Source: Octopus vulgaris (taxonomy: Eukaryota). From it: a stretch of DNA of 64,000 nucleotides. The notes below the pieces were generated by a model, which saw only the letters and a list, made by a program, of their open reading frames with translations, searched no databases and was not told where the DNA came from. This document shows, in pieces, positions 1,317 through 2,047 of this stretch; position 1 is the first letter of the stretch; the number at the start of each line of letters is the position of its first letter. The translations under genes and the position numbers were made by a program. The stretch spans positions 21,018,001 through 21,082,000 of the forward strand of contig OX597821.1 of NCBI GenBank assembly GCA_951406725.2, given 5' to 3'.

Positions 1317-2047
1317 GCAGCAACATTTAGGAACGGCCATAATAGGCCGTTCAACCCACTAGAAATAGCAGCCAAGGCTTCAACCGCAAAACAATATTAA
1401 TTCCGTAAACCAGGAGAAAAATTTAAAAACATTTACCCTGTAATACCTTATACAATGCATCGTTTCGTCTATTTTTTAAATAGTTAGTGGGTTGAACGGC
1501 CTATTATAGCCGTTCCTAAATTTTGCTGTTGAATTTATTAATGGTCTCTGACTATTTACTTTTTTCCCACTAGGCCGCTGGTGGCAAATAATTTCTGCTG
1601 AATTTTTTTGCCACCCTATATTGATTAATTATGAATTTTCTGTTTAATTCCGAAATGGAAGCGGCAGCTTATATTTGCTGCCGATAAATTTGGCGCGAGT
1701 ACGATGATTTGAAAATTTTAGGTCAGATATAGCCGAGACAGTAGTGGTGCTGCCTCGTGCAAATATCTGTCCCGTCTGGCTTACCTTACTGATGAATTTA
1801 TTGGCCTATGGAAGATTAGCTTGATTTAATTTAATCAGGTTGATTTACCATTAAAAAATAGACGAAACGATGCCTTGTATAAGGTATTACAGGGTAAATG
1901 TTTTTTAAATGTTCTCCTGGTTTACGGAATTAATATTGTTTTGCAGTTGAAGCCTTGGCTGCTATTTCTAGTGGGTTGAACGGCCTATTATGGCCGTTCC
2001 TAAATTTTGGTGTTGAATTTTTTTGCCACCCTATATTGATTAATTAT
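1317..2047 (+). mobile_element. Non-coding hammerhead-bearing element with inverted and direct terminal repeats (Penelope pLTR/retrozyme-like), between (TA)n tracts
   Basis: 1317-1480 is the reverse complement of about 1852-2010; direct repeats 1487-1537/1969-2020 and 1600-1632/2014-2047; hammerhead at 1782-1886. Confidence 0.8.
1782..1886 (+). ncRNA. Type I hammerhead ribozyme with ~68-nt stem II
   Basis: UACCUUA-CUGAUGA-auuuauu...aauagac-GAAA-CGAUGCCUU-GUA-UAAGGUA; perfect 7-bp stem I. Confidence 0.8.

Follow-up and report, generated by a model that had tools for sequence, protein, structure and literature searches.

Metazoan non-LTR retrozymes are, according to the main texts of PMC7229834 and bioRxiv 10.64898/2026.07.22.740005, non-coding, AT-rich repeats with one type I hammerhead per unit, arranged in tandem and present as heterogeneous variants. 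Their co-occurrence with autonomous Penelope-like elements (PLEs) is reported in the same papers, and mobilisation by PLEs has been proposed. The insertions of EN+ PLEs comprise partial tandems, an inverted 5'-truncated copy and an extension at one end, with a bias for (TA)n targets (main texts of PMC8557442; PMC3846280). In vitro, the RT-endonuclease of the anole PLE Poseidon nicks both strands of an AT-rich target and extends them from two internal starts that bound the tail; a start lies in a stem-loop, and the enzyme is predicted to be a dimer. The two start sites are used without strand difference in that assay, and ribozyme cleavage is dispensable (main text of PMC11167929).

We analysed a window of 64,000 nt from Octopus vulgaris (contig OX597821.1, positions 21,018,001 to 21,082,000). 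Near its start lies a metazoan non-LTR retrozyme, a young repeat that is non-coding and carries a type I hammerhead. This element works like a PLE insertion and shows those features of metazoan non-LTR retrozymes that can be tested; it is neither an autonomous PLE nor a MITE. The one-end tail, the inverted copies, the TA bias, the two internal starts and the proposed link between PLEs and retrozymes are already known from the main texts cited above. A search of main texts, with subscription papers mostly outside its scope, yielded no cephalopod retrozyme, no strict pairing of PLE start sites and no comparable stem II. In the main texts of that literature, we found neither the strict site pairing nor a non-coding element with a 104-nt tail, and neither joint ribozyme stops nor a 68-nt stem II. 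The retrozyme papers among them (PMC7229834; bioRxiv 10.64898/2026.07.22.740005) likewise gave no example of head-to-head arrays bounded by two fixed ends in (TA)n. The words 'inverted' and 'microsatellite' do not occur in the main text of PMC7229834, nor do 'retrozyme', 'ribozyme' or 'hammerhead' in the available text of the octopus repeat annotation (PMC13282606).

Structure of the window copy

The window copy lies between two (TA)n target tracts (1181..1316 and 2045..2280) and amounts to 1.3 units plus an inverted piece. Monomer positions (m) are numbered from window position 1485, which puts the predicted ribozyme cut after m395. One complete non-coding monomer of 484 nt occupies 1485..1968 on the + strand and contains the type I hammerhead (1782..1886, +). 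It is followed by a partial second unit (1969..2047, +) and preceded, on the - strand, by an inverted arm (1317..1479) that corresponds to m367-484 and then m1-44. The outer end of the inverted arm is a position fixed in the family, End A, and that of the partial unit is a second one, End B. At the head-to-head junction between the arms, a 5-nt filler (1480..1484) duplicates the letters with which the right arm begins.

A preliminary description of this stretch had proposed a monomer-plus-overlap unit with direct repeats 482 bp apart around one hammerhead. The periodicity and the repeat are borne out (1485-1539 and 1969-2023, 95% identity), with a spacing of 484 instead. The right end of the unit was found to include a 69-bp deletion between 10-nt near-repeats: 2011-2047 matches 1596-1632 at 97%, so that the partial unit consists of m1-55 joined to m123-148. 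This deletion carries the right arm of the window copy to End B, and its junction is absent from all other loci compared. We infer that the window copy was derived from a continuous RNA, the deletion reflecting a template jump or a later loss.

As had been stated, the inverted copy starts inside stem II, namely within its 3' strand, since the 162 nt of 1318-1479 are 96% identical to 1851-2012. It extends ~28 nt beyond the ribozyme cut site and lacks the hammerhead core. The perfect 8-bp hairpin described beside (TA)n is also present (1331..1352, - strand), immediately inside End A. Given the BLAST E value of the inverted arm (9e-72) and a genome-wide family, the window copy is not a product of chance. 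Structure prediction delineates a putative docking region at 1485..1632 (+), made of a multi-branch domain (1485-1572) and a hairpin (1577-1613). In this predicted fold, the End A site (near 1528) sits in a hairpin loop of the multi-branch domain, and the End B site (near 1630-1632), which was read through in the unit 1485-1968, comes shortly past the other hairpin.

The window harbours other repeats. Direct repeats 926-1145 bp apart that start at (GATA)n tracts (3341-5000) seem to be two partial copies of another repeat following GATA microsatellites. A repeat with a 62-bp internal duplication, which we take to be SINE-like, is found at 2330-2770, and a 41-bp minisatellite with 18 copies at 97% at 10159-10896.

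The hammerhead and its stem II

Stem I of the window hammerhead pairs 1782-1788 with 1880-1886, the 7 bp initially reported; the core is at 1789-1795, stem III is short, and the GUA triplet (1877-1879) sets the predicted cut at 1879/1880. The ~68-nt stem II region is exactly 68 nt from core to GAAA (1796-1863). A scan with Rfam models gave no match in the window at the gathering score.

We analysed 129 units matched by a pattern that permitted several core variants, none of which occurred, and stem II lengths of 60 to 76 nt. The core is invariant in 129/129 units, with all four bases at N7 and A or C at H17, and the cleavage triplet is GUA in 83 units and GUC in 46. Across 27 variants, 98.3% of the cells pair, and double changes are found at two pairs of stem I, one of the stem II base and one of stem III; as the 27 sequences are related, the shuffle control overstates this pairing support. 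By its core, its three stems and the covariation in the 27 variants, each unit thus carries a type I hammerhead, which the Rfam models miss.

The stem II region measures 67 to 69 nt in all 129 matched units, and on these comparisons the long stem II is a real, conserved trait of the family. In its fold, a 5-bp base is followed by an internal loop and then by an extension of 18 bp, which is 99.2% paired in the 27 variants, with one-sided changes only. The preliminary description compared it with the stem of minimal PLE hammerheads; the proper comparison is with canonical retrozyme hammerheads. As given in the main text of PMC4209133, helix II has 7-8 bp in the minimal PLE motifs and ~4 bp in the canonical animal ones, against a 68-nt stem II here. 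Comparisons of the 129 units and 27 variants gave no sign of protein binding or another added function for stem II, and neither End A nor End B falls within it. Because of an A-C mismatch at the stem II base (17/129 matched units, this one included) and a loop III change private to it (1/129), the ribozyme of the window copy may be a weak cutter.

A genome-wide family of non-coding repeats

The family numbers at least several hundred copies, with units of 484-489 nt, inserted in TA microsatellites. A DNA similarity search of the genome gave at least 119 matches (best 40 of 1957 candidates scored). The exact End B-to-TA junction pattern has at least 786 matches, the junction of one End A variant with TA 431 and that of the End A variant of the window copy's subfamily 34, while the reversed control patterns have none. 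At 1.5%, the 91 loci of sufficient sequence length group into 30 clusters, and the divergence between cluster representatives is 2-16%. Divergence between units inside one locus is mostly <1%.

As in retrozymes, units occur in tandem, with arms of up to ~7 units, in line with the periodicity and tandem multimers that the preliminary description had proposed to look for in the genome. The longest ATG frame on either strand of the doubled monomer is 18 aa, and on that measure the element is non-coding; it also appears to be free of LTR features. It contains no ORF with RT and GIY-YIG domains of the kind that defines autonomous EN+ PLEs; such ORFs sit in a separate family. The monomer is predicted to be highly self-paired, as are retrozymes: circular folds of two variants have 62-64% of their positions paired, with z values of -5.4 (window monomer) and -4.6 against 25 shuffles. 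The unit is longer than the 170-400 nt given for retrozymes in PMC7229834 and within the 51-972 nt of bioRxiv 10.64898/2026.07.22.740005 (main texts). According to the latter, 24/57 Xenopus families have pLTR homology; here, no BLAST match linked the monomer to a PLE pLTR in 40 GIY-YIG loci, except for a separate neighbouring insertion.

The insertions are of the PLE type, with an inverted shortened copy, a tail at a single end and a microsatellite target. Their lengths range from <100 nt to 4.7 kb, and no target-site duplication is discernible inside the (TA)n flanks. The tail of 104 nt compares with 30-40 nt in EN+ PLEs, from which the element also differs by having no coding sequence (main texts of PMC8557442; PMC3846280).

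Contigs of four sequencing runs, guessed to be RNA but possibly DNA, span the monomer, with a summed depth of up to ~13,000 in one of them and no control stretch for comparison. They show variants of commoner subfamilies; one contig crosses the unit junction, as a genomic tandem also would. Two further pieces (L238:1230-1300 and L119:431-997) are 76-79% like the monomer or have a diverged End B hairpin adjoining TA. They probably represent further, diverged retrozyme families.

Outer ends are fixed at two internal sites

The outer ends of the copies are fixed at two internal sites 104 nt apart, End A at m41-45 and End B at m143-152. Both have the 3'-end polarity of the hammerhead strand and lie 133 nt (A) and 237 nt (B) downstream of the cut. 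Locus samples were anchored on End A, on End B or on similarity, the 30 loci of the similarity search being biased toward long arms. Removal of 23 duplicates from 165 raw insertions left 142, among which L094 and L155 are still one insertion present as two edge-cut rows and L072/L073 possibly a segmental duplicate. These 142 include 88 with one end of each kind (A/B), 32 single-armed copies (16 A, 16 B), 12 cut by the edge of the locus and 10 with one end elsewhere. On visual inspection, a worn End A can be made out in three of these 10, and a stub of the opposite end in several of the single-armed copies.

Eleven edge-cut insertions were refetched whole, nine of which proved to be A/B and two single-armed, and six of six further loci are A/B; three refetched loci were left out of the counts since they had been picked for being A/B. 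Altogether, the two-armed insertions examined are 103 A/B, 0 A/A and 0 B/B. TA is found on both flanks in 88/88 two-armed loci, and priming on both strands of a TA target, as had been suggested, remains the best reading. Arm ends are set by two fixed internal sites, one per strand, and not by the monomer boundary or the ribozyme.

Arms, junctions and the RNA template

The two arms of one locus differ by 0.66% versus a median of 7.6% to other loci (54 loci); the average distance to the nearest other locus, 0.67%, is practically the same as that between opposite arms. In eight loci, a variant private to the sample is present in both arms. Part of this arm identity could stem from a single dominant source in each cell or from conversion of one arm by the other.

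Inner ends are enriched at m391-425, a test window chosen after viewing the histogram (32/176, exposure-corrected p=1.6e-5). These stops fall not at the predicted cut but 5-40 nt downstream of it. Both arms reach the cut zone in 54 loci: both pass in 33, both stop in 13 and they differ in 8 (p=3e-6), although overall arm lengths correlate weakly (rho 0.23). Since both arms behave alike there, a property of the template molecule is indicated. Sequence comparisons of this kind point to the state of the RNA, ribozyme-cut or continuous, as the basis of the shared pass or stop. The longest arms, 2727 nt among the 88 A/B loci and 3530 nt in L203, need a continuous RNA.

Unit variants recur along one arm with a period of 2 in L101, L202 and L211 and of 3 in L203. 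They fit dimer or trimer circles but also later duplication. The periodic variants of one arm are missing in the other in L202 and L211, contrary to what one circle shared by both arms would lead one to expect. The variant site common to both arms of L201 is the edge of a T-run that is variable in other loci. Inherited unit-specific variants within clusters, a comparison of weak power, gave no support for diverged tandem sources: of six flagged sites, two belong to an insertion that entered the count twice, and the others are mostly CpG or homopolymer positions. Arm stops show no clear enrichment after exactly one turn. On their first pass, B arms halt more near the End A site (m9-48; 14/78 at risk, 5.0 vs 2.7 per 1000), as if the RT met the start of the other RT or a hairpin. 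At the inner junctions, 16 of the 45 that are flush or overlapping show an overlap of at least 4 nt, for a rough expectation of ~3%.

A candidate enzyme

A search for GIY-YIG proteins, limited to scoring the best 150 of 6136 candidates and to reading 40 loci, identified a young PLE family (L181-L196) with a unit of ~5.2 kb. Many copies have an intact 781-aa frame that encodes an RT, a CxxxxCxxC linker and, at the C-terminus, a GIY-YIG domain; a long upstream region with open reading is also present. Judged from its linker, the family appears to be Neptune- or Nematis-like (main text of PMC8557442). Its hammerhead is of the minimal U3-A8 kind, which the main text of PMC4209133 reports from PLEs. 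The window itself contains a decayed PLE fragment (50804-51278), 44% identical in tblastn to the 781-aa protein at its endonuclease end. A minimal U3-A8 hammerhead layout at 24247-24285, with a 5-bp stem I, a palindromic stem III and a weak stem II, may be due to chance.

The PLE copies end in (TA)n in two ways, at a short end (508 exact matches) or ~36 nt further, at a tail end (236). Inverted copies combine a short and a tail end in nine cases seen in alignments and three more by coordinates only. In one case, L281:319-779 (G000:C7:8418900-8420000), a stub has the tail at both outer ends. Only 2/30 short-end loci are two-armed within 1.5 kb, so these PLE copies are mostly single-armed, whereas the retrozyme copies are mostly two-armed.

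The monomer has no sequence similarity with the PLE loci compared. For this reason, the mobiliser is assigned from the footprint and from one chimera, L003, the sole retrozyme-PLE chimera among the loci behind the 142 insertions. At L003:1409-2640 (G000:C11:53255569-53259107), a two-unit retrozyme arm with End B is head-to-head with the inverted 3' 190 nt of an autonomous PLE. The two parts are joined via a short duplication with no TA between them, the PLE part ends at the tail, in the same variant as L281, and both outer ends are in (TA)n. As L003 pairs End B with the tail and L281 has two tails, the PLE does not follow the rule without exception. Two other candidate chimeras, L114 and L264, were rejected as separate neighbouring insertions.

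Mechanism of insertion and alternative explanations

We consider it likely that the copies arise through twin-primed TPRT by a Penelope-like RT-endonuclease on one RNA with two fixed internal starts. From the DNA patterns, we infer the following course for a putatively expressed RNA. The RT-endonuclease, probably a dimer, would nick a (TA)n tract on both strands and dock on the structured region m1-148. One target strand would prime at the A site and the other at the B site of the same RNA, and both cDNAs would be extended toward its 5' end. On a linear RNA cut by the ribozyme, both would stop just before the cut, giving arms of ~110-130 and 200-230 nt; on a continuous RNA, circle or uncut multimer, they could proceed through as many as ~7 units. 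The 3' ends of both cDNAs would then be joined by short homology or filler. The A/B rule, the TA flanks, the near-identity of the arms, the joint stops and the PLE with the same two-end pattern, bar one exception, support this mechanism, as do the frequent overlaps at inner junctions, the L003 chimera and the in vitro behaviour of the Poseidon enzyme on both target strands. Against it stand the 42/142 insertions that are single-armed or have one end elsewhere, the dissimilarity of monomer and PLE, the end pairings of L003 and L281, the mostly single-armed PLE copies, the offset of the stops from the cut and the unmirrored variants of L202 and L211. The Poseidon assay, with its lack of a strand difference and its dispensable ribozyme cleavage, also counts against it. 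In L1 twin priming, primers from both target strands yield a 5' inversion joined by short homology, one primer being on the poly(A) tail and the other at a variable internal site. Here, in contrast, neither site is variable, both are internal, and the two arms share sequence. The element also differs from Poseidon in the strict pairing of its sites and in the joint stops near the cut, seen in roughly one in four informative loci.

The inverted arm might instead be produced by self-priming, as proposed for EN+ PLEs (main texts of PMC3846280; PMC8557442): a primed cDNA, or an antisense RNA, would fold back and be copied, and the endonuclease would resolve the far end, leaving a tail on one side. 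This scheme directly explains the arm identity and the joint stops. It also suits the 10/88 junctions at which the ends of the two arms coincide to within 3 nt, often on local palindromes. However, neither arm contains the other in 40/88 loci, or in 29/88 when a 30-nt margin is required; in the latter loci, 30 nt or more of each arm cannot have been templated by the other (e.g. m239-44 with m123-146 in L061), so simple fold-back is insufficient. This frequent non-containment, contrary to the self-priming model, and an end rule counted in 103/103 cases set the family apart from EN+ PLEs as described in those main texts. Moreover, either arm can be the longer one (A in 35, B in 53 of the 88), and in the L003 chimera one arm comes from another element. 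Fold-back would thus require the loss of large loops or later deletions, and we regard it as improbable. We give no greater credence to twin priming on two separate RNAs held in one complex, supplied by a locally dominant source, or to arrays grown by unequal exchange after insertion rather than by read-through. The L003 chimera, the arm-specific periodic variants of L202 and L211 and a nearest other locus as similar as the opposite arm speak for such schemes. The concordance of 46/54 loci at the cut zone and the private variants shared by both arms speak against them. So do the many clusters containing loci with <1% internal divergence, which indicate that the activity of different variants roughly coincided in time.

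That the family is a MITE DNA transposon or a plain satellite with a fortuitous hammerhead-like motif is very hard to believe, even though it has inverted arms and TA flanks and escapes the Rfam hammerhead models. The termini are not inverted repeats, their terminal 30 nt being 32% alike, which answers the question of a TIR raised at the outset. The inner ends and the overall length vary, and the hammerhead core is invariant while N7 and H17 change and stems I to III keep their pairing, with double changes at four pairs.

Beyond the twin-primed mechanism itself, we tentatively propose a more specific reading, on which we would not yet rely. A dimer of the PLE RT-endonuclease would copy the small ribozyme RNA asymmetrically, from A on one strand and from B on the opposite one, with circles giving multi-unit arms and opened monomers short ones.

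The main texts of the papers discussed here leave three questions open, namely the origin of the tandem, inverted and tailed insertions of PLEs, the role of the hammerhead in vivo and the nature of the retrozyme mobiliser. This octopus family supplies, in one genome, a 484-nt template, two exact predicted starts, a predicted cut and intact candidate enzymes, so that all three can be tested with the assay that exists for a Poseidon element. If the asymmetric copying holds true, the tail and the inverted copy of PLEs would stem from one event, the hammerhead would set the template's 5' end in vivo, and the enzyme that spreads animal retrozymes would be identified.
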